Source: a virus (lineage: Duplodnaviria; Heunggongvirae; Uroviricota; Caudoviricetes). From it: 64,000 bases of DNA. The stretch lies in IMG/VR virus record IMGVR_UViG_3300045988_162656; one strand, written 5' to 3'. Numbering within the stretch: position 1 is the first letter of the stretch; each line of letters opens with the position of its first letter. The notes beneath the pieces were generated by a model that was not told the origin of the DNA, ran no database searches, and saw nothing but the letters and a program-made list of their open reading frames with translations. This document shows positions 538 through 64,000 of this stretch, in pieces. The position numbers and the translations under genes are program-made.

Positions 538-857
538 GCTGATCCCTCTTTCTCTCCCCGGATAATTCTGTTGCACACATCCACACACTCGTCGCAGATG
601 AAAACGGCGTCCCCAGCAATTAACTTTTTGACGGCGTACTGGGATTTGTTGCAGAAGCTGCAACAAAGTGTTCGCCTGACTGATAAGGATGGAGCGCCAG
701 ATGTCAGCCGCTCCATATCGTTCTTGCGACGCAATATCACACGGCTGAACTCAACCAGTTTCTCCGGGGATATCTCCTCCTCCGTAGCAAGCGCCTCTAA
801 TCGTTCGAGTATGTGGAAGGCTTTTTTCTGGGTAATTGCAGAATGCGATGTGGTCAT
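534..857 (-). CDS. small zinc-ribbon protein resembling the ClpX N-terminal zinc-binding domain
   Basis: Motif CCSFCNKSQ...[17 protein letters not shown] matches the ClpX C4 zinc-binding domain pattern as I recall it; start ATG (cat 855-857) preceded by AAAGGAGAG; ORF track 534..899 trimmed. Confidence 0.5.
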
Positions 858-858
858 C

Positions 859-1389
859 TCACTCTCCTTTGATGCGAATGCCAGCGGCGCGGGAATCATT
901 CCATCGCTTTACTTCTTCACGAATTACGTCAATGCATTCTTTCGAATCCATTAGGTAATCTTCATCAAAAAGACGTTCCTGTTCGTTTTCTATCGCAACA
1001 ATGATTGCTTCAACTAACTTTTGTGCCTGAGAATCACTTTCTAACTCTGCTATGCGCTTACTTCCATCCGAGATAACGCCCTCGTAATACTCACGCTGCT
1101 CGTTGAGTTTTGATTTTGCCAACTCCAGTTGTTTTGTTAGTTCCGCAATACGGCAAACATCGTTGATACGCGTTTCCTCTAATGCGTTGATCTCATCCAG
1201 TAGTGCCAGCACGGTTTCTGGTCCGGCCAGAAATTTGAAGGCGTTGAGGGCATCAATATCAACACCGCTATCTTTAAGTTCCTGTTCACTTAACAAGTCA
1301 TCATCAGCTGGCAACATTAACAGGCGTTCCATTGCTGGAATTGCACGTTCCGCCACCTCACGCAGTGCCTGGTAATTAATTTCGCTCAC
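859..1389 (-). CDS. hypothetical coiled-coil protein
   Basis: ORF track; GTG start overlapping the upstream stop (GTGA), SD AAGGAGG 6 nt upstream; ends GIRIKGE. Confidence 0.5.
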
Positions 1390-1928
1390 TGGTTGCCTCC
1401 TTTGCGAAGCTGGGCAGCAAAGTCAACTAACCACTCAGTCATTTCAACCTTCCCTACCAGGTCTGAACCAGGGTGCATACAGCAATCACTCTGCGCCGCT
1501 TTGAAATCCTTATACTCATATTCTTGGGCCACCAGATTTTTTGCAGCTTCTATAGCAGCATCCACCCCCTGCGCACGTACTTCAGCCAGAAAAGCATCGG
1601 TGGCTGGAGTCTCCGTTAATTCGCTAACCCAATTATCTCCGTGTTCCTCGGCACACATCGCATCGAATGCTCGCTCAGATTCTTTCAGGGCTGCATTCTC
1701 CGCCGCTAATGCGTCTCTCTGCGCCCGCAACTTCTCAATTTCGGCAGCCATGTAGTAACCAACCATAGCGAAGACGGCAAAAGAGTTGTCTGCCTCATCA
1801 GGCGACACTGAGGCCATTAGCAGACCATCGTAATAATCGTGACTCCCATTGGTGATCGCCACCGCATAGGAGTCGTGGTTCTCACGCTTGTGAATGAGAA
1901 CTACGGGGTTTTCGATTTTGTTACTCAT
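1386..1928 (-). CDS. hypothetical protein
   Basis: ORF track; ATG preceded by the conserved initiation region GAAAAACACATG. Confidence 0.5.
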   Translation of the reverse strand: MSNKIENPVVLIHKRENHDSYAVAITNGSHDYYDGLLMASVSPDEADNSFAVFAMVGYYMAAEIEKLRAQRDALAAENAALKESERAFDAMCAEEHGDNWVSELTETPATDAFLAEVRAQGVDAAIEAAKNLVAQEYEYKDFKAAQSDCCMHPGSDLVGKVEMTEWLVDFAAQLRKGGNQ

Positions 1929-2066
1929 GTGTTTTTCTCTTCTTTGCTGTTACATAAGCACTACCAAGTGCTGGTTTATTTTCACAAATAAGAAAATGTA
2001 GAAAACAATTTATTTAAGGCCACAACTTATGGCCTTTATTTATTCATGCCGAAGGATTTGTAGCGT

Positions 2067-2447
2067 CTAATTGCCGTATAAAATGGGGTGAGGTGCTTGC
2101 CAGTAGGCTCCACCGGTCCATGTGAACCCCATGCGAATAAGAGTGTTTATTGCGGCTTTGGTAGACTCCGATTCGACACTGGCTTTACGAAACTCTTGAA
2201 CCTCTTTCGCCAACCTGTATGTAATTGTGCAGGGGACGATTGCAGCCCAGCCTTTCTCATGACTGTTAATGACCATCTGGATGTGACCATCCAGAATAGG
2301 TTGATTAGACATGTTATTGAAAATGTCTGCCTGTTTTTGAATGTGAAGAAAAAGCCTTGCCAGCTCCATTTGCTCACTACGAGACAAGGGATTATCAAGA
2401 GGGCTTTTTGCAAAAGCGGCTATACGCTGTGCGTCAATGCCAAACAT
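2067..2447 (-). CDS. hypothetical protein
   Basis: ORF track; start abuts the stop of the upstream gene. Confidence 0.45.
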   Translation of the reverse strand: MFGIDAQRIAAFAKSPLDNPLSRSEQMELARLFLHIQKQADIFNNMSNQPILDGHIQMVINSHEKGWAAIVPCTITYRLAKEVQEFRKASVESESTKAAINTLIRMGFTWTGGAYWQAPHPILYGN

Positions 2448-3151
2448 CAGCGCACCTCACCATCTTTATGGCTGGAGTTAACTTCCGCCATTAAATGTCT
2501 GACGTAATCGACAAGAGAGCCACCTGGTGGAATCTGGCATTCCTCAACTAACTGGAAGTAGATATCCGCAGCATTACGTGTATTGCTACCCGCGCATATT
2601 CTTTCTTCCCGAAGTGCATGAAGCTCGTTGATCAAACGGTCACACTCTCCGTTACGCTGATCCACAACAGCCTCAAGTTCTGCGACGCGTTCACCTGGCG
2701 TCTTACCTTCTTCGCGTTGGATGGTAACGACGAAATCGCCAATTGCAGGGACGTTGTAATCCAGCTCAAGGTAGTTTTTGGCACCGCTGCGGACGAACTC
2801 ACCCGCGAACATGGTGGCGAACATCTCAGAGGCCATTGTGCTGTTGAAAAGTGACTCCAGATCTAACGGAGTCCCGGCAGCCAGAGCCTCTTTTGCTGTA
2901 TCCATTGTATCCATGAACCGATCAAACTCATTAGCGCGCTTTTCCAGGTCTTTCCATTGCTCGCTCCAACGTTTGGCAATGAAGTCTATGAATGTTTTCG
3001 CGGATTCATCAAAATCCCCCTCAAACTTAACGATGCCTTTATCAATAATGATCTGGCCTACCGCATCCTCTGCATAACCTTTCAATGTAAACTTGAAAGG
3101 AAAATCAGAATGGCCTGTGACGTTAAAATGCTCTAACTGGAGGTTGTTCAT
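2447..3151 (-). CDS. hypothetical protein
   Basis: ORF track; ATG preceded by AAGAGAAAAACAT. Confidence 0.5.
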   Translation of the reverse strand: MNNLQLEHFNVTGHSDFPFKFTLKGYAEDAVGQIIIDKGIVKFEGDFDESAKTFIDFIAKRWSEQWKDLEKRANEFDRFMDTMDTAKEALAAGTPLDLESLFNSTMASEMFATMFAGEFVRSGAKNYLELDYNVPAIGDFVVTIQREEGKTPGERVAELEAVVDQRNGECDRLINELHALREERICAGSNTRNAADIYFQLVEECQIPPGGSLVDYVRHLMAEVNSSHKDGEVR

Positions 3152-32129: not shown

Positions 32130-32185
32130 GTTTTCCTATGTGGTTGTTATGCGAAAATAATAAGTAAGTACTTATATATTTTCAA
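32130..32185 (-). promoter_or_regulatory. candidate sigma70 promoter overlapping a dyad motif
   Basis: Minus strand TTGAAA - 17 bp (ATATATAAGTACTTACT) - TATTAT, then conserved initiation region. Confidence 0.4.
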
Positions 32186-45660: not shown

Positions 45661-47574
45661 TTAGGTTGGGTTGTTGATGCTAATGGTAAGTGTTTCGATA
45701 GCAAGATCATGAGTTTGGTTGTTTGTTATATCTGTTAAAACAAAAGCCTCATCACCAAGAGCAATATTGTCTTTAACCAGCTTGAATTTACTCCCCGCCT
45801 TGCCATCGAGAACGGGAATTACAGTTCCTGTGCCTTTCTCATATTGCAACTCAAGAGTGTGCCAATTGTTGTCGTAGTCACCATATGAGTCTATCTGAAC
45901 ATTTCGATTATTGCCTGTCCTGTGCATCATAATGTTCAACTTGCCTCCAATTGTTTGAAGGAAGAAGTTAGCCAGAAACAGGCTCCCAGTACCGTCGAAT
46001 GATATATCGTCAGCAACAGGTTTACTGGTTTTGTAATATATACCAAAGCCAAACTTAGCTTTTTTTGGATCAGGGTTTCCAGATAATTTAAACTTACAAA
46101 GTAATTTACCTCCATTCTCAAGAAGAGTCTGTGCTATGTCAGTAGCTTTACTGATCGTCCAAGTTTCGTTGGAAACCGCTTTAGTTAAAGCAATTGCTTT
46201 TCCGTTTTCAACTGACTGAATATTTGCACCAGTTACAGTCCATCCTTGTTCAGTAGCGACATCACCACCAGCTCCAGTTAAGGAAATAACCGTTCGCGGG
46301 GTTGGAGTTGTGACAATGTTGTCATTTTTAGGTTGAGTAGGTTGTTCTTGTTTAATAATCTCACCTGTAACGCCATTCACAAAAGCAGATGATTTCGCTG
46401 AATGTGCAAGCAGCGCAGTTGCGAGACGATCAGATATTATTCCGCGTCGCTGCCATGAACCAAAATGACTCTCTCTACTCTCGGAAGTCCATGTTTTATT
46501 ATCCTTGCGATGACCGGAACCATAATAGCCAATAGATGTGATGTCTGGATCATCTGTAGGGCTATTGGTTAATACGTTATTATCATTCTCATCTTTCATG
46601 AATGGAACGAAATAAATTGCTTGTGAGGTTTTTCCCTTATAACCACCATAAACAATTTCGTACTGTTTTGGATATTTGTTTTTCCACCAGTGGGTCGTAT
46701 CGCCACAAATCCAGGGTACATTTGCAGCACTTCCGAAAACACATTGTGCGTCGTATTGAGATAGCTCTTTTCTGAAACCTTCGACCATCTTGAGGAACAG
46801 TTCGTTATGCTGCGAGTACTTGCCAGTTGCCAAATCAGCTTCGCCTTGCATCCAGACAACACCAAGAAATACATTCTTTTTGTTTTTACTTAAGGCCGCT
46901 TTTGTTCTGGCTACAATATCCTTATACAAAGGAGTATTTAATCCCCATTTTAAAGATGATTCGATTGCACCTGACTCTTCATAATATTGGCCTTCAGAGC
47001 CTGTAACAGTGAAACCAGAACCACCTCTTCCGCAAGGAACGAGCAAAATACCTGCGTTTGCTGGAATGAATGGTAATAGTTTTTTGCCAATGTGTAGTCC
47101 CTGACCAACACATCCATATTCAGAGTCGTTTGCTTTTGGATGCTTGAATTTAGTCATGTCTTGTACATCATGAAGACAGTGATCAGCGGGAATTATTTCA
47201 TTGTACTTACAGGCAAAACCACCAGGTTTAATATTGCTGCGTCGAGCTAACTGTTTTACGCGAGGATGTGGCCGATCAAAAGTTTTTGGCATAGGCAGTC
47301 CTTCGCCGTATGACATTGAGTTGGATTGACCTGCGATAGTAACTACATAATAATAGTCAGGCTCTTCATCTTCATTTGATACCGGTGTGGGCAATTGTGA
47401 TAAATCACCAGATCGCACAATTGCTTGATTGTACGCATTTGGTCCGCCCTTACTTGGTTCAACAATGTTTGGTGACTCGAAAGGTTGCCAACCCTCTGCG
47501 ATTTTCTTCGCAAGTTTTTCTCTAAGCTCTTTGCTTGATGATGCTGACAAAATATCATAGTCAATGAATGACAT
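45661..47574 (-). CDS. SGNH-type carbohydrate esterase (sialate O-acetylesterase-like) with C-terminal beta-rich domain
   Basis: Motif YYVVTIAGQSNSMSYG resembles the GQSN block of SGNH/O-acetylesterases; SD AAAGGAG. Confidence 0.6.
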   Translation of the reverse strand: MSFIDYDILSASSSKELREKLAKKIAEGWQPFESPNIVEPSKGGPNAYNQAIVRSGDLSQLPTPVSNEDEEPDYYYVVTIAGQSNSMSYGEGLPMPKTFDRPHPRVKQLARRSNIKPGGFACKYNEIIPADHCLHDVQDMTKFKHPKANDSEYGCVGQGLHIGKKLLPFIPANAGILLVPCGRGGSGFTVTGSEGQYYEESGAIESSLKWGLNTPLYKDIVARTKAALSKNKKNVFLGVVWMQGEADLATGKYSQHNELFLKMVEGFRKELSQYDAQCVFGSAANVPWICGDTTHWWKNKYPKQYEIVYGGYKGKTSQAIYFVPFMKDENDNNVLTNSPTDDPDITSIGYYGSGHRKDNKTWTSESRESHFGSWQRRGIISDRLATALLAHSAKSSAFVNGVTGEIIKQEQPTQPKNDNIVTTPTPRTVISLTGAGGDVATEQGWTVTGANIQSVENGKAIALTKAVSNETWTISKATDIAQTLLENGGKLLCKFKLSGNPDPKKAKFGFGIYYKTSKPVADDISFDGTGSLFLANFFLQTIGGKLNIMMHRTGNNRNVQIDSYGDYDNNWHTLELQYEKGTGTVIPVLDGKAGSKFKLVKDNIALGDEAFVLTDITNNQTHDLAIETLTISINNPT

Positions 47575-47799
47575 AATCGTTACTCCTTTAACGATAAACT
47601 TTAGCTAAAATCGATACGATTTTAGCAGTTAAAAAACGACAATAAAATATAAGAGTAATGTATGAAAGAACAATAAAAATTGCGTAAATGGATATGTGTA
47701 AAATATGTGGAATTTCACACACAGCGTTGAGCGGTCTGGTTTATGTTAGCGGAGTCTTAATCGAGTTGATTAAAAGGCCAAACCGCTCAACGCTGTGTC

Positions 47800-47886
47800 T
47801 GGCGGAGAGTAATGGAATCGAACCATCATCGCTTGCGCAATGGGACGGTTTTCAAGACCGCTTGAGCACCATGCTCCCTACTCTCC
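47800..47886 (-). tRNA. tRNA-Ser (anticodon UGA), type II
   Basis: Hand-folded: acceptor GGAGAGT/ACTCTCC, anticodon arm GCGGT-CTTGAAA-ACCGT, long variable arm, T-loop TTCGATT, encoded CCA; D-arm atypical. Confidence 0.7.
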
Positions 47887-48110
47887 GGCCGTTGTGGTGG
47901 CCGGTACTGAATCTCCGGCATACGGTGCAGCCAATTAGGACTACGGACGATCACCGCTCGCGAAAGGGAAGATTTGCGGCCGCATTTCCCTAACATCCAA
48001 GAAAGCTATCGCATTAGTCTGCGAATCCACCACAACGGTAAGATCACTACCTTTCGACCAGTCATTGTGCACATGAACGACGATTAACCGTAATGATCTT
48101 ATCGTTGTAT

Positions 48111-48186
48111 TGGTGCCGGTTAGCGGACTCGAACCGCTGACATCCTGCTTACAAGGCAGGCGCTCTACCAACTGAGCTAAACCGGC
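48111..48186 (-). tRNA. tRNA-Thr (anticodon UGU)
   Basis: Hand-folded cloverleaf: acceptor GCCGGTT/AACCGGC, D-arm GCTC-AGTTGGTA-GAGC, anticodon loop CTTGTAA, T-loop TTCGAGT, CCA. Confidence 0.85.
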
Positions 48187-48190
48187 AATT

Positions 48191-48277
48191 TGGTGGGGAG
48201 TGATGGAGTCGAACCACCCGAGTTGCAATGACAGTAGATTTACAGTCTACCCAGCTGCCCCTACGGACTAACTCCCC
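48191..48277 (-). tRNA. tRNA-Tyr (anticodon GUA), type II
   Basis: Acceptor GGGGAGT/ACTCCCC, anticodon arm GTAGA-CTGTAAA-TCTAC, long variable arm, T-loop TTCGACT, CCA. Confidence 0.8.
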
Positions 48278-48282
48278 TAAAT

Positions 48283-48357
48283 TGGCGATGGTGGGTGGAT
48301 TCGAACCACCGACCAGTTGGTTAACAGCCAACTGCTCTACCGCTGAGCTACACCATC
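48283..48357 (-). tRNA. tRNA-Asn (anticodon GUU)
   Basis: Acceptor GATGGTG/CACCATC, D-arm GCTC-AGCGGTA-GAGC, anticodon arm GTTGG-CTGTTAA-CCAAC, T-loop TTCGAAT, CCA. Confidence 0.85.
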
Positions 48358-49117
48358 AATTCAGCACTGCCAGTATTTATTACTCAACAGTGCCAATCGC
48401 GGCGGTGTTAGTTTCTGCCAGGAAACGCACCGCTACTTGCACTTTTTCGTTAGTGTCAGACGCTTTCGACTTCTCTCAATAGAAGGCAAAATCTTTAAGT
48501 AGATGATGTTTCTGAGGACAGCACCTACTTTGTAATTTATACAATGTGATGTATGGAATCATTTGTTGTGGAAAAGTGGTTAAACCTACACAACAATCCT
48601 GTCTTCACAACGTTGAGGCCACTACTCCGATTGAATGTTTGCCCAACATGTTACATATCAACGCTCGCCGGTATCTCTGTGAATAGAACCTTAGAATTGA
48701 TAAAAATGTAATGGCCTCAACGTTGTGTGCTGGCTAACCATACCAGCCGGGCTACGTCGCCGCTTTTTAACCCAGTATAAACGACATAATTGAACAAAAT
48801 GACGTAACAGAATGGGCGGTCAGTGGCTAAGAATCCGGGAGTCATATGGAGTTGAAAATATACCGACCGCCCATTCTGTTACTTCATCGGAGGGAACATG
48901 AGTGTTCCCTCCTGCGTTCTGCAATCACACTCGCTCAGTGTGTCCCATTTCGGTAACGAGGCTGGAAACTGACCTCGCTGGTGTTTGGCTTATTAGGCTA
49001 CTGCCAGATAGACTTCTTCGTTTGCACTTGTATTTAAGTTCAAACAGTCGCATCTCAACGAAAACAAAGTCATCTTATACACAAAGGATAAGTAAGTAAA
49101 TACTTATCGATATGTTT

Positions 49118-49408
49118 TTATTCGGTTGTGACTTTTTTGATCAAGGCCACTCTACGACTAGGTGTTCTTGTGATGGTGGCAGTGAATCGTTTCGCTTGGA
49201 TAGTAATGGTTTCGTTCTCCTTAAGTTGCCCGTAGCGAGTTTCCACCAGGGTGCCAAGACGCCACAGACCATCATCGATACGTTTATGACTAGCAAATTT
49301 AATCAGCAACAGTTTTACGACTAACTGACCTACGTAAAAGGCGAATGCGACTCCGACCGCTAAGAAATAGGTGGCCAACCACCAGTCCCAAGAAGTTAAA
49401 TTGCTCAT
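49118..49408 (-). CDS. membrane protein
   Basis: N-terminal hydrophobic helix WWLATYFLAVGVAFAFYV; SD AAAGG. Confidence 0.5.
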   Translation of the reverse strand: MSNLTSWDWWLATYFLAVGVAFAFYVGQLVVKLLLIKFASHKRIDDGLWRLGTLVETRYGQLKENETITIQAKRFTATITRTPSRRVALIKKVTTE

Positions 49409-52399: not shown

Positions 52400-52474
52400 A
52401 CCAACTCCTAGCTAACAGATGAAAGTATTCTCACAGAAAGATAAGTAATCATCTACTTATTTTAAAGGTGATTG

Positions 52475-53737: not shown

Positions 53738-55078
53738 TTAGGTAACGTCTAAGATTCGCTCAATGAAGCGCATTTGTTCGAGGTTTTGTTTAACGCGAAT
53801 GCTGATCCCTCCCTGCTGGTTACGTGAACCAGCAAAGTAGAGACGAGCCTCTCCTTTCGCTTCTTCTTCTTCGGTTTTGTTGATCGTTATTACCAGGTCA
53901 GCAATACGTACTTTTTCGATGTTGTCGGCAGCGTGCATCATTGTGGCAACTTCTGACGCGCCACCTTCACGGTTTGTCTGCGATGCCGTGATCCCAGCAA
54001 CGTTATGCTTGTCATAAAGAGCACGTAAATCGGTGTAGATACTACGAATGTTGGCGCGATCATCACGAAGGTCATAACTGGCACGCATCAAATCTGCGTA
54101 GTCGACAACAACCATGTCAGGCACCATGCCGTTGGCTTTCATGCTGTTAAGCATACGGTCCAGATCTGCCGGTGACATACTTCCTGACGGACGCTCAACC
54201 ACCCACAAACTACCAATCCCCTTCGTGGCTCCCAACTCTGCCAACTTACGATGAACCTCATCGCGCCGTTCCACCAGCTTGGACATTTCTGTCTCCGACA
54301 ATCTTGCATCAAAACGGTCGGATAAAATGGTGGTGTGAACCTCCAGCGAGAGATACAGAACATTGTAGCCAGCAAGCGTTGCGTTTATGGAAAACTCACC
54401 CATTGCGGTCGATTTACCGGATTTAGCGAACCCCATGAAGAGCACCATTTCACGCTTCGCCCAGCCTTTTTGGTACAGCAACCTATCGAGCAGAGGGAGT
54501 CCAGTTGTAATGCTGTTTGGCACATACTCCTCTGAAGCCTCATATTCACGCGCTTTCAATCGCTCACTTGCGGAGGTGTAGTAGTCATAGATTCCGGTCG
54601 CTTCGTTCGATCCAATCTGCTGAACCTTAGCCATGATTGCCATCGCTCCCTGAAAGTCGCCTTTCTCTTTCAGTTCAGCAGCCTTAATCAGAGCATCATC
54701 AAACGCTACACTTTTTGCGAAGGTTGATACCTGGTCAACCATGTACGAGGTATCGGACAATTTTTCTGCAAGAATGCGCTTAAACGCAGCAACAACATCG
54801 GCGAATAGTTCCTCACGGATAGTCTTATCGCGTTTCGCACGCTTAAGCATATCCAGAATTGCAGATGAAGAGGGCGCGCTCTTGTACATACGGTAATAGC
54901 CCGAAACCATATTAACCAATATGGCATTGGCCGCATTGGCAAATTGGCTAGGCACAACCAGATCTCCCGCACGAGTAAGAAACTCGTGATCACGACAAAA
55001 ATATGCCGTCAGTCTGTTCTGGAAATCTTCATCAAACTCTTCGGACAGCCCGCGTCCTGTATGGCAAAGTTCTGTCAT
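53738..55078 (-). CDS. DnaB-like replicative helicase
   Basis: Walker A GFAKSGKST and downstream RecA-fold blocks; conserved initiation region. Confidence 0.8.
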   Translation of the reverse strand: MTELCHTGRGLSEEFDEDFQNRLTAYFCRDHEFLTRAGDLVVPSQFANAANAILVNMVSGYYRMYKSAPSSSAILDMLKRAKRDKTIREELFADVVAAFKRILAEKLSDTSYMVDQVSTFAKSVAFDDALIKAAELKEKGDFQGAMAIMAKVQQIGSNEATGIYDYYTSASERLKAREYEASEEYVPNSITTGLPLLDRLLYQKGWAKREMVLFMGFAKSGKSTAMGEFSINATLAGYNVLYLSLEVHTTILSDRFDARLSETEMSKLVERRDEVHRKLAELGATKGIGSLWVVERPSGSMSPADLDRMLNSMKANGMVPDMVVVDYADLMRASYDLRDDRANIRSIYTDLRALYDKHNVAGITASQTNREGGASEVATMMHAADNIEKVRIADLVITINKTEEEEAKGEARLYFAGSRNQQGGISIRVKQNLEQMRFIERILDVT

Positions 55079-61376: not shown

Positions 61377-61958
61377 TTACTCTGCTGGTATTGTTGGCCA
61401 CTCAATATCAGGTGCAGTTGATGTATCAACACGGTTCAGCAACACCCGATACTTTTTCCAGGCTTCCAGCAATGAGGTTTCTTCCTCCGTTGCAATTTCC
61501 AGATCTGCAGCATCCTGAAGCGGCGCAATATGCTCACTGGCTACCTGCATCAGGTTGTTTTTTGTTTCTTCCGCCTCCCGGATCCGGAACAGTTTTTCTG
61601 CTTCCGTATCCTTCACCCAGGCTGTGCCGTTCCACTTCTGAAACTCCCCTTCCGGCGATAACCAGGTAACATTTTCCGGTAACGGACCGAGTTCAGAAAT
61701 AAATAACTCGTCCCCTGACGCTACGTCATAAACCGTTTTACCCCGATGGTCTTCAACGAGATGCCACGATGCCTCATCACTGTTGAAAACAGCCACAAAG
61801 CCAGCCGGAATATCTGGCGGTGCAATATCGGTACTGTTTGCTGGCAGACCTGTATGAGGCGGAATATATGCGTCACCTTCACCAATAAATTCATTAGTTC
61901 CGGCCAGCAGATTATAAATTTTTATGGTCCGTGGTTGTTCACTCATTCTGAATGCCAT
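61377..61958 (-). CDS. tfa: tail fibre assembly protein (lambda Tfa-like)
   Basis: N-terminus [20 protein letters not shown] and C-terminal [21 protein letters not shown] match my recollection of lambda-family Tfa proteins. Confidence 0.85.
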
Positions 61959-64000
61959 TATGCAAGCCTCACAATATAGTTAAATGCGATGTTTTTGACG
62001 GTGTTTTCCGCGTTACCAGCAGCGTTAACGGTGATGGTGTGTCCGTGTGAGCCAATCGCAACGGAGTGCGTATGAGCACCAATACCGACAGTATGTGCAT
62101 GTGCGCCTGCGCTTGCAGCAGTGCCGGACAGCGAGTGGGTATGAGCACCATCTGATGATGTCTTCCCTGCATTACGAGTCTGGCCACTACCGCTTGTTGT
62201 GCTCATAATCCCCGCGCTTAGATTTGAAATCGCGGTATAACCATTAGGGAAAATGCTCGTGTTCGTGCCACCAAATGCACCGGAACTCTTGTGTTGGTGC
62301 GCACCGGCACTATTTGCAGTCCCGCTAATACTATGGGTATGCGCCCCGGTGTTATTCGTGGATTTGGTTCCGTAATCAAACGACGATGTGTTTTTCGTCC
62401 CCAAATCCGTACTGGATGCGCTGGCGCTGTGGGTGTGCGATTTAATGCCGTCCTGTTCCTGAGACAATACGGCACGACCACTGGCGGGTTTGCCCTTAAT
62501 CGTCCAGCCACGCATATCAGGGATCACGCCTGACGGATAAGCCGCTGCAAGTTTCGGGTATGCAGATTTGTCAAAAGTCTGCCCCTGCATCAGGGCATAA
62601 CCAGACGGAACGGTATCTGATGGCCACGGGATTGGTGCACCGACTGGGTAGCTTTCTGGTGGAAGATTTTTCGAGGTATAAACTTCTGCCCAGTCTTCCT
62701 CAAAACCATAACCGTCTCTTGAAGAACGGTAGAACAGACCACCATTTCTGTAATGCGCCTTCATCTGCAGGGTCCGGCAACTTCCGACTCCGGTATAGAA
62801 GTTAACCAGAATATAGCTGTCGCCAGAGCGGGTGACTTTGTAAGCGCCTGATTCGGCATTCCAGGGAACGGCTCCATCCGAATCCGCATAAGCCCCCGTC
62901 GAACGTCGGGCAAATGCACCAATATTTTCCGGCGTGAGGTTAATATCCGCCGAGCCATCAAACTTAACACCGTTAATTTTTGGGGCTGCCGCAAGTTTCG
63001 TCGCGGTATCGGCGTTCCCCTTCAGTGCCCCGGTGATCCCATCAGTAACAGACAACGGACCTGAAATAGTCCCTCCAGTCGTTGGCAGCGCTCCAATATC
63101 TGATGGTGTAGGTTTCTGATGTGAGCTATACATCGTATAAACAACACCATAGGTAACGCTGGAAGGCTTACTCGCTGAATATGTTGGCGAGGTATAAACA
63201 GAAACTGACGCATTTGCAGTACAATCCCAATGGATATTTACACTCGTCGCATAATTGCCAATCTCAACGTAAATATCATATGTATCGCCGGATGTGTTGA
63301 TCCAGGCGAAATTCGTTAATCCGACGGCTGTACGCTTCCACAAAGCCCCGGTAATTCCTTTGGGGTTTCCATTGCCTGCTCGTAGAACCAGTTCTGAAAT
63401 GCCTGCCTGATGTGGGGAACCGACGTTGTAACCAGCGCCACCAATCAATGCGATGTAAACGATGGAACTCGCTTGTGGCATGGTAACCGTAGCCAGTTTG
63501 AACCACCCAGCCCCGCCAGAGAAAGACATCGTTACTGAATTTAAAGTACCAATATCTTTCGGCGTTAATGTTATATCCGCAGTCAATGCTTTTCCGTTAA
63601 CTTTTCGGTTAGATGGCACCCTGCTATTCGCATTGTCATTGGCTGCTTTAACTGCTTTTGGCGTTGCGGCCAGCGATTCACTGGTGCTATCAACAGCACT
63701 GCTAAGTTTCACAACACCTTTAGTTGTAAGGCTTGCGTCTTCCATCGCAACTGCACCGGCAATCTCTTCAGCACGATCAGCAGCAGCTTCCGCACGGGTC
63801 GCAGCGGATTCAGCAGTAGTTTTGCTCTGAGATGCTGCCGTCGCACTGCCTGCCGCCTCTGTTGCCTTCGTGGATGCTGTCGTGGCGCTGCCCTTCGCTG
63901 CGGACGCTTGTCTGGTCGCCTCATCTTTTGAAGCTGACGCCGATGATGCCGATGACGCCGCCGAACTGGCGGACGATGCGGCAGGCGGTTCCGCAGCCAG
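61958..64000 (-). CDS. stf: side tail fibre protein (lambda Stf-like), 5' end outside window
   Basis: Frame stays open to the window edge (ORF track starts at an internal Met, 63745); conserved [31 protein letters not shown] block; Gly/Ser/Thr-rich repeats with SAGAH..H motifs. Confidence 0.85.

Follow-up and report, generated by a model that had tools for sequence, protein, structure and literature searches.

The window analysed here is a 64,000-nucleotide stretch of DNA from a virus of the Caudoviricetes (IMG/VR record IMGVR_UViG_3300045988_162656), and the subject of this analysis is a group of RNA genes at 47590–49110. Every gene of this group is on the minus strand, and the region is read from 49110 to 47590; the features of the region described below all lie on this strand. 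A transfer-messenger RNA (tmRNA)-like core is located at 48914–49066, and four transfer RNA (tRNA) genes follow it: tRNA-Asn (GUU, 48283–48357), tRNA-Tyr (GUA, 48191–48277; missing from phage Cyrano), tRNA-Thr (UGU, 48111–48186), and tRNA-Ser (UGA, 47800–47886). The four tRNAs were found by both ARAGORN and Rfam, and they alone combine a cloverleaf with an anticodon; a tRNA-shaped domain at 47889–48038 was called by neither program. We consider it fairly probable that 47716–49106 constitutes one minus-strand stable-RNA operon of an SSU5-like phage-plasmid, which includes a tmRNA-derived tag-template RNA. Its layout from 5′ to 3′ would be the tmRNA-derived RNA, long hairpins, tRNA-Asn, tRNA-Tyr, and tRNA-Thr, a hairpin with a domain resembling the small RNA (sRNA) STnc100, tRNA-Ser, and a last hairpin.

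A first-pass annotation had described the region as a cluster of four tRNAs within structured non-coding sequence, possibly with further RNA genes. The cluster and its setting were borne out by ARAGORN, Rfam, folding, and comparative analysis, and the guess of further RNA genes gained support from the tmRNA-like core, the long hairpins, and the tRNA-shaped domain. The annotation had named as its own refutation an outcome in which RNA predictors return only the four tRNAs and no conserved structure. ARAGORN and Rfam at curated thresholds indeed returned the four tRNAs only, whereas the absence of conserved structure was overturned by the comparative analysis. The only hint of an extra RNA from Rfam was a sub-threshold beta_tmRNA match in a search at E ≤ 10 (48942–49044; 17.3 bits against the RF01850 cut-off of 84). 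The tag frame of the core, the kinship among the long hairpins, and the variability of the spacer between tRNA-Thr and tRNA-Ser had been missed.

Relatives were obtained by comparing a 2-kb query (47400–49400) with sequence databases. The query is approximately 96–97% identical to E. coli plasmids of about 110 kb and to SSU5-group phages, and the near-identical relatives include NZ_CP027369, plasmids of O104:H4 strains, and phage Cyrano. Salmonella phage SSU5 shows 78% identity over 48595–49400 of the window. In the records of about 97% identity, the tRNAs are the sole annotation between a DUF6645 gene and a small open reading frame (ORF).

The tmRNA-like core carries a GUUUUCG..GCGAC motif at its 5′ end, followed by the tag frame, a helix over the stop codon, a hairpin with a pseudoknot, and a second hairpin. 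The tag frame (48993–49025) reads GCA AAC GAA GAA GTC TAT CTG GCA GTA GCC TAA, which corresponds to ANEEVYLAVA*, and a second TAA comes directly after it (to 48990). An Ala resume codon, the lack of a start codon, a hydrophobic ..LAA-like end, and a stop, which together mark a tmRNA-type tag, are all present in ANEEVYLAVA*. Neither an in-frame AUG nor a Shine-Dalgarno sequence was conserved at the tag across the examined copies. A small ORF from an AUG overlapping the resume codon was considered as an alternative reading and rejected, as the number of its codons ranges between 5 and 9 and phage CBA120 lacks it.

A family sample anchored outside the tag (TTTTAGAAACTGACCAC) gave 40 distinct members, all of which possess a 10-codon frame with the stop at the same position. 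The stop codon is TAA, TAG, or TGA, the last Ala codon occurs as GCG, GCT, GCC, and GCA, and synonymous changes are seen at the Val, Glu, and Asn codons; in Kuttervirus, Ala-Asn is written GCT AAT instead of GCA AAC. Within the SSU5 lineage, the tag is ANEEVYLAVA in the window, ANEDTYLAVA in SSU5, and ANDNQYLAVA in the Klebsiella relatives, so that codons 3–5 vary (EEV, EDT, and DNQ) in a flanking RNA that is almost invariant. The tags of more distant phages are of the same kind: ANDDLMMAAA in P7, ANDDVVLMAA in the N4-like phage PE007, and ANEDRFLMAA in the Klebsiella siphophage SCNJ1-C. The fixed ten codons, the synonymous and stop-codon changes, and the invariant flanks make up the pattern of a trans-translation template. 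Judged by these substitutions, the tag frame is under peptide-level selection, and neither a pure RNA mimic nor a pseudogene fits the pattern easily.

The structure of the core was analysed with an alignment of 23 copies (A1). Helix 5 (49004–49007/48978–48981) encloses the stop codon; in the following hairpin (48973–48977/48957–48961), the loop UCCA (48963–48966) pairs with UGG.A (48943–48947) to form the first pseudoknot. Helix 5, this hairpin, and the first pseudoknot are each 91–97% paired in A1, with two or three doubly changed pairs. The pairing of the first pseudoknot occurs in A1 as CCGA/UCGG, CCAG/CUGG, CCAA/UUGG, and CUAG/CUAG. The next hairpin in the window, CACAC-UGAGCGA-GUGUG (48926–48942), is in the relatives stem 1 of a second pseudoknot. 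Taken over the A1 helices and the two H-type pseudoknots, 94.8% of the cells are paired, compared to at most 45% when the partners are slid against each other. Changes affecting both partners occur in 13 of the 23 pairs, and none of 500 shuffles reached the observed values. The window copy itself retains helix 5, the first pseudoknot, and stem 1 of the second pseudoknot. Several further pairings were tried and discarded. Candidates for an upstream pseudoknot (PK1) or a ring-closing helix were invariant or inconsistent between phages, the long-range pairs proposed by RNAalifold in the SSU5 lineage were without covariation, and a pairing of GUUUUCG with the start of the tag is not kept in Kuttervirus.

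A covariance model, R1, was built from 18 core copies of P1-like phages, N4-like phages, siphophages, and Kuttervirus, and contained no SSU5-lineage sequence. In the window, R1 matched 48914–49066 over its full length (model positions 1–167) with 73.3 bits and E = 3.3e-18, and this was the only match in the 64 kb. SSU5 and two Klebsiella relatives were matched with 72–74 bits (E = 2e-18 to 8e-18). A blastn search with the unit of SCNJ1-C hit 692 phage records, which span N4-like phages, Kuttervirus (e.g., CBA120), phAPEC8-like phages, Erwinia phages, P1, and several siphophage groups. Among the matches listed for this unit, nearly all are unannotated and a few lie under a ‘hypothetical protein’. 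Taken together, the alignment and the model searches indicate that the core is a conserved, covarying RNA module across unrelated enterobacterial phages. They bear in addition on the idea that the non-tRNA sequence of the region is decaying tRNA or tmRNA debris devoid of present function. The failure of the tRNA-like pieces in tRNA predictors and the varying module content between relatives would suit such decay, but the conservation reaches deep across phage families with compensatory changes, and the frame is intact in 40 of the 40 sampled copies. Covariation, frame, and R1 results have already largely refuted this idea, and we regard it as very improbable.

One of the loci concerned, 840–3010 of CBA120 (L132, NC_016570), is a 2.2-kb segment without an annotated gene that holds the core with the tag ANDNTFLAVA. 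The same locus contains several tRNA-like units with canonical T-loops, some of them CCA-ending, which ARAGORN did not call, and an HNH homing endonuclease gene at its end.

Upstream of the core, the first-pass annotation had seen a dyad near 49088, and TAAGTA..TACTTA is present at 49089–49106. This operator-like dyad (TAAGTAAGTAAATACTTA), located by a motif scan, overlaps the −35 region of a putative sigma-70 promoter at 49072–49100 (TTTACT/TTACTT, 16–17 nt, TAAGAT) that we read from the sequence. The pattern TAAGTA-N(0–10)-TACTTA has four matches at three places in the window (32161–32174, 49089/49093 within 49089–49106, and 52442–52459), compared to 0.02 expected. The copies of the dyad are candidate operator sites of a phage repressor, which may bind to them. 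From the putative promoter, transcription would begin near 49065, where the conserved GUUUUCG motif lies. The Klebsiella siphophage relatives possess a promoter, TTGACA-17-TAGATT, at the same distance from this motif, and the record of P7 places the counterpart operon under the C1 operator Op(ban). By analogy with P7, the RNA operon probably starts at a repressor-controlled promoter near 49072–49100.

tmRNA is generally seen as one molecule of highly stereotyped form, which standard tools detect via its tRNA-like domain. The two-piece (circularly permuted) tmRNA of Betaproteobacteria and their phages (RF01850 beta_tmRNA and RF04321 tmRNA_permuted) shares with the window RNA the resume context AUAAAU-GCA AAC GA.., tags of the ANDERFLMAA type, the location of the stop codon in a helix, and the pseudoknots after it. 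The window RNA and its relatives in enterobacterial phages differ in being without an acceptor stem, G3·U70, a canonical T-arm, and an ACCA end. They reach 17–32 bits against Rfam cut-offs of 47 and 84 and are not called by ARAGORN; with the Rfam permuted-tmRNA models, the core copies of the relatives gave 21–32 bits against the 47 of RF04321, in the tag region only. A scan of IMG/VR for the resume context revealed genuine permuted tmRNAs on the AT-rich viral contigs L018, L046, L056, L111, and L014, for which ARAGORN reports ‘tmRNA*’ and RF04321 gives 102–130 bits. The tags of these contigs (ANDERFLMAA and ANDNAFLMAA) are nearly the same as those of the enterobacterial phages, and R1 weakly matches two of the permuted tmRNAs (L018, 25.1 bits, E = 2.4e-5; L046, 21.4 bits, E = 2.5e-4). 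The likeness to E. coli ssrA, a one-piece tmRNA with the tag ANDENYALAA, consists of AGU-GCAAACGAAGAAGUCUA.. against AGUCGCAAACGACGAAAACUA.., both ending in UAAUAA, and of an equal length and chemistry of the tags. Nothing is similar beyond the tag region, and R1 had no match to ssrA at E ≤ 1. By eye, GUUUUCG..GCGACUUUGCG resembles the D-loop and the start of helix 2 of tmRNA (UUCGAC GGGAUUUGCG in E. coli), and on account of this resemblance we regard the RNA as derived from the coding piece of a permuted tmRNA.

tmRNA-related genes have been described in phage genomes, often beside tRNAs (PMC4131195, PMC9004378, and PMC11915505). A survey in 2014 listed phage tmRNAs only in mycobacteriophages (cluster C), Bacillus phage G, and DS6A (PMC4131195), a two-piece tmRNA is known in an OM43 methylophage (PMC9004378), and a tmRNA database paper of 2025 counts 79 phage sequences (PMC11915505). 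Those of the cluster C mycobacteriophages, phage G, and the OM43 phage are mostly complete tmRNAs found by standard tools, unlike the RNA described here. DS6A is the converse case, a tRNA-like domain without a tag, whereas the window RNA is a tag without a tRNA-like domain. In the literature searched, we found no description of a tmRNA-like RNA in P1/P7, N4-like, SSU5-like, or Kuttervirus phages, although an earlier mention is possible; a tag-bearing RNA without a tRNA-like domain thus appears to be undescribed there.

Several results weigh against an operon with a tag-template RNA. ARAGORN found no tmRNA in the window or in any of the enterobacterial-phage relatives (about 45 related loci). 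With Rfam at permissive thresholds, applied to the region, the whole window, and the relatives, the tag part alone was aligned. A scan near every copy for a T-arm followed by 7 nt and NCCA with U70 detected only ordinary tRNAs, or tRNA-like units without G3·U70, and no consistent complement to the conserved 5′ motif GCGACUUUGCGG was detected nearby. Two candidate partners were rejected. Pairing with host ssrA was no better than shuffled (duplex −116.6 versus a shuffled mean of −124.5), and the tRNA-shaped domain as an alanine acceptor has U3–A70 in its closing helix, G·U pairs elsewhere, and no encoded CCA. The unit after the core differs between close relatives in Kuttervirus, from which it follows that the core behaves as a free-standing module. 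Stem 2 of the second pseudoknot is not evident in the window copy, and a consensus promoter scan made no call at 49072–49100. In the Klebsiella siphophages, the promoter puts the 5′ end of the RNA a few nucleotides before GAUAGUUUUCG, too close for a 5′ acceptor strand to fit in; the same would apply to the putative promoter of the window (TTACTT-16-TAAGAT). As far as these searches can tell, the core is tmRNA-derived, not a demonstrable tmRNA, since the tRNA-like domain that defines the latter was not found.

The absence of a tRNA-like domain raises the possibility that the RNA is a decoy, which mimics the mRNA-like and pseudoknot part of tmRNA and titrates host factors (e.g., ribosomal protein S1 or RNase R), or disturbs host trans-translation in another way, comparable to the DS6A RNA that consists of the tRNA-like domain only. 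The surveys describe a phage RNA of a tmRNA domain only as inhibiting tmRNA (PMC4131195 and PMC11915505). A pure mimic, however, would need neither a fixed 10-codon frame nor interchangeable stops and synonymous codon swaps, and the middle codons are the least conserved nucleotides, as in real tags. We therefore consider a decoy unlikely, and a tag template remains our preferred reading of the core.

The sequence between and around the core and the tRNAs is rich in hairpins. Between the core and tRNA-Asn, the first-pass annotation had noted inverted repeats near 48607/48712, 48808/48866, and 48890–48915, all of which were recovered by a repeat finder and folding. The first leader hairpin read from the core is a short, perfect 10-bp hairpin (48889–48898/48903–48912; z = −5.2). 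The second (48799–48824/48862–48887) has 26-nt arms of 92% complementarity, a 37-nt loop, and z = −9.1, and begins with GUAACAG. The third (48606–48625/48708–48727) has 20-nt arms of 95% complementarity, an 82-nt loop, and z = −6.7, and its base is CACAACG..CGUUGUG. A hairpin said to abut the 3′ end of tRNA-Ser is likewise real (47716–47739/47778–47801; 24-nt arms, 92% complementary, −45.1 kcal/mol, z = −10.1, base CACAGCG..CGCUGUG). The annotation had not listed a fourth long hairpin (48027–48050/48090–48113; z = −4.8), which starts 2 nt past the CCA end of tRNA-Thr and forms the first half of the variable module between tRNA-Thr and tRNA-Ser. Two of the four long hairpins, those after tRNA-Thr and tRNA-Ser, thus start 0–2 nt from a tRNA 3′ end. 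The segment 48358–48605, before tRNA-Asn, is partly conserved and contains a mini-helix, GUUGUG (48606–48611)..CACAAC (48565–48570), and further small hairpins.

The base CACA(A/G)CG..CG(U/C)UGUG is common to three of the four long hairpins (47716–47801, 48027–48113, and 48606–48727), but not to 48799–48887. Further in, the arm sequences diverge between hairpins, each arm being complementary to its own partner. Inverted repeats of at least 16 nt within 200 nt number nine in the 64-kb window; the three located in the RNA region are the only ones with loops of 37–82 nt. Across the Escherichia, Salmonella, and Klebsiella relatives, the stems of the long hairpins are kept through G-C to A-U and G·U changes, and the loops cannot be aligned, from which we infer that the duplex is the functional part. 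In hairpin 48606–48727, for example, GGCC/GGCC is compensated to GACC/GGUC in Klebsiella. The stem of the 10-bp hairpin (48889–48912) differs in SSU5 and the Klebsiella relatives and still pairs, with three pairs changed on both sides in three of six sequences and a fourth pair in one of six. Hairpin 47716–47801 is conserved in Cyrano and in Klebsiella pJN2-26, a homologue of the hairpin after tRNA-Thr follows the core in SCNJ1-C, and in many phages the core has members of the long-hairpin family beside it, on one side or on both. The duplexes, with stems of 20–26 bp, may be RNase III sites or structures that protect a 3′ end. In the IMG/VR contigs L036, L044, and L099, the loop of the long hairpin upstream of the core holds a near-canonical T-arm (GAGGGUUCGAAUCCCUAC) together with another small hairpin, so that the hairpin looks like a tRNA with an over-long acceptor stem.

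The position of these hairpins between a promoter-like site and the first tRNA, and the great stability of several of them, would be compatible with an ordinary 5′ untranslated or regulatory leader of a tRNA operon, equipped with attenuators or terminators. Intrinsic terminators were examined and rejected: all five hairpins lack a downstream U-tract, and a terminator scan called none of them. Moreover, the core occurs in other phages (L113, L078, and L099) without downstream tRNAs and ends there at its own terminator. An ordinary leader accordingly seems to us highly unlikely.

The spacer between tRNA-Thr and tRNA-Ser varies strongly in length among phage-plasmids of about 97% identity. It is 8 bp in Cyrano (L003, 3168–3175), where ACACAAT, one motif copy, is left; 224 bp in the window (47887–48110), corresponding to one module; and 490 bp in the O104:H4 plasmid (L002, 3488–3977), corresponding to two tandem modules. 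By this comparison, the spacer is a gain/loss module composed of one long hairpin and the tRNA-shaped domain. The first-pass annotation had reported tRNA-like pieces in 47887–48110 that resisted folding into a cloverleaf, and such pieces do exist there: a 12-bp closing helix (47889–47900/48027–48038) with D-arm-like and T-arm-like hairpins. In the window, the domain (47889–48038) consists of this helix, a D-arm-like UCGCA-GACUAA-UGCGA, a variable middle, and a T-arm-like GCCGG-AGAUUCAGUA-CCGGC followed by CACCACAAC. It is 97% identical to a piece of the tRNA regions of P7 and D6, and 74% identical to one of Klebsiella phage BUCT_49532. In fourteen distinct copies, the helix GUUGUGGUG/CACCACAAC closes a domain whose hypervariable middle is flanked by UGCGCA-GGCUGA-UGCGCA as the 5′ hairpin and GCCGG-AGAUCAGCA-CCGGC as the 3′ hairpin. 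The loops of the two hairpins are complementary (GCUGA/UCAGC), and one position of this pairing covaries, being G-C in nine copies and A-U in three, the window included, with no mismatch. The complementary, covarying loops suggest a kissing interaction like that of D-loop and T-loop. In P7 (L004, AF503408), three hairpin-plus-domain modules lie within 800 bp after tRNA-Thr, and ARAGORN detects at 2663–2749 a tRNA-Ser (UGA) that is unannotated in the record.

In BUCT_49532 (L005, 1863–2720), a copy of the domain and a terminator come after an HNH endonuclease gene, and the unit stands in the opposite orientation among baseplate and tail genes. This arrangement hints that the domain travels with the homing endonuclease. 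The long hairpins and the module between tRNA-Thr and tRNA-Ser could accordingly be mobile cassettes at the DNA level, i.e., homing-endonuclease cargo, elements resembling miniature inverted-repeat transposable elements, or recombination sites, whose RNA structure is incidental. Zero, one, or two copies of the module among 97%-identical plasmids, the recurrence of the CACAAC/GUUGUG motif at unit borders, the location of the BUCT_49532 domain just downstream of the HNH gene among tail genes, and a tyrosine recombinase gene about 2 kb from the RNA region all fit such cassettes. On the other hand, in all phages examined the units point in the same direction as the tRNAs, the covarying stems with drifting loops fit selection on the duplex, and the modules occur in lytic phages as well, with no integrase at the examined loci. 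Integron attC sites (RYYYAAC...GTTRRRY) were rejected, because the hairpin bases (CACAAC...GTTGTG) have only AAC...GTT in common with them and the nearby recombinase is by annotation an ordinary phage tyrosine integrase. Cassettes with merely incidental RNA structure are, in our estimate, quite unlikely; mobility and RNA function can coexist, and mobile units are compatible with a stable-RNA operon.

The tRNA-shaped domain has a counterpart among known sRNAs. The layout of 47889–48038 is that of STnc100 (RF02076), namely a closing helix ..UGGUG/CACCA.. followed by AAU, and then two hairpins on the 5′ and 3′ sides of a variable middle, with the 3′ one abutting CACCA. The two differ in that the STnc100 model has no match in 47400–49400 at E ≤ 10; a paralogue in P7 reaches 43 bits against the cut-off of 47. 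STnc100 and PasD are prophage-encoded sRNAs of Salmonella and E. coli, and esterase genes are reported beside PasA and PasD (bioRxiv 10.64898/2026.05.13.724894). The domain of the window is likewise near an esterase gene (DUF1737-SASA), comparable to the neighbours of PasA and PasD. STnc100 and PasD have, however, been discussed as base-pairing sRNAs of lambdoid prophages and not as parts of a tRNA operon.

Assuming a stable-RNA operon, we presume that a single precursor would be transcribed from the repressor-controlled promoter. RNase P and 3′ processing enzymes would cut it into separate RNAs at the tRNAs and tRNA-like units, and the stems of about 20 bp could be cut by RNase III or stop exonucleases. 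The tmRNA-like RNA would then supply the tag template for the rescue of stalled ribosomes during phage growth, beside the tRNAs that sustain translation. Its delivery to the ribosome might be accomplished by the tRNA-shaped domain as a non-canonical carrier, by a partner encoded elsewhere, or by host components. The first of these is unlikely, since the domain has neither G3·U70 nor CCA. More generally, we tentatively raise the possibility, in which our confidence is low, that enterobacterial phages of many families (SSU5-like, P1/P7, N4-like, Kuttervirus, and several siphophages) carry a free-standing tag-template RNA without a canonical tRNA-like domain of its own, either as a new architecture of trans-translation or as a means to capture host SmpB/tmRNA. 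Delivery would involve the STnc100-like domain or another partner in trans, in a setting of modular tRNA-like units separated by processing hairpins.

The core is unannotated in classical phages (P7, N4 relatives, CBA120, and SSU5) and in common phage-plasmids of E. coli, Salmonella, and Klebsiella, and the covariance model R1 could annotate it in hundreds of genomes. If it is functional, phages would reprogram or supplement ribosome rescue in an undescribed way, and phage ‘tRNA clusters’ would be broader operons for the support of translation. The tRNA cluster of phage T4 is comparable in that it is co-transcribed with two additional small stable RNAs of unknown function, which are released by tRNA-processing enzymes. 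The modules described here give a context for the orphan prophage sRNA family STnc100/PasD and account for kilobase-sized ‘empty’ regions in phage genomes.

The gene next to the RNA operon on its downstream side (45661–47574, minus strand) encodes a protein of 637 amino acids with DUF1737, SASA (sialate O-acetylesterase-like), and DUF6645 domains; it is the esterase gene mentioned above, and it is swapped for other genes in phage Cyrano. A perfect 10-bp palindrome, GCTAAAATCG-TAT-CGATTTTAGC, is located at 47604–47626, just upstream of the ribosome-binding site of this gene. Elsewhere in the window, the Rfam sRNA family IS009 has a full-length match on the minus strand at 61417–61615 (225 bits against a gathering score of 117), and weak sub-threshold matches were observed for IS009 at 53879–53969 and for isrG at 63775–63990.

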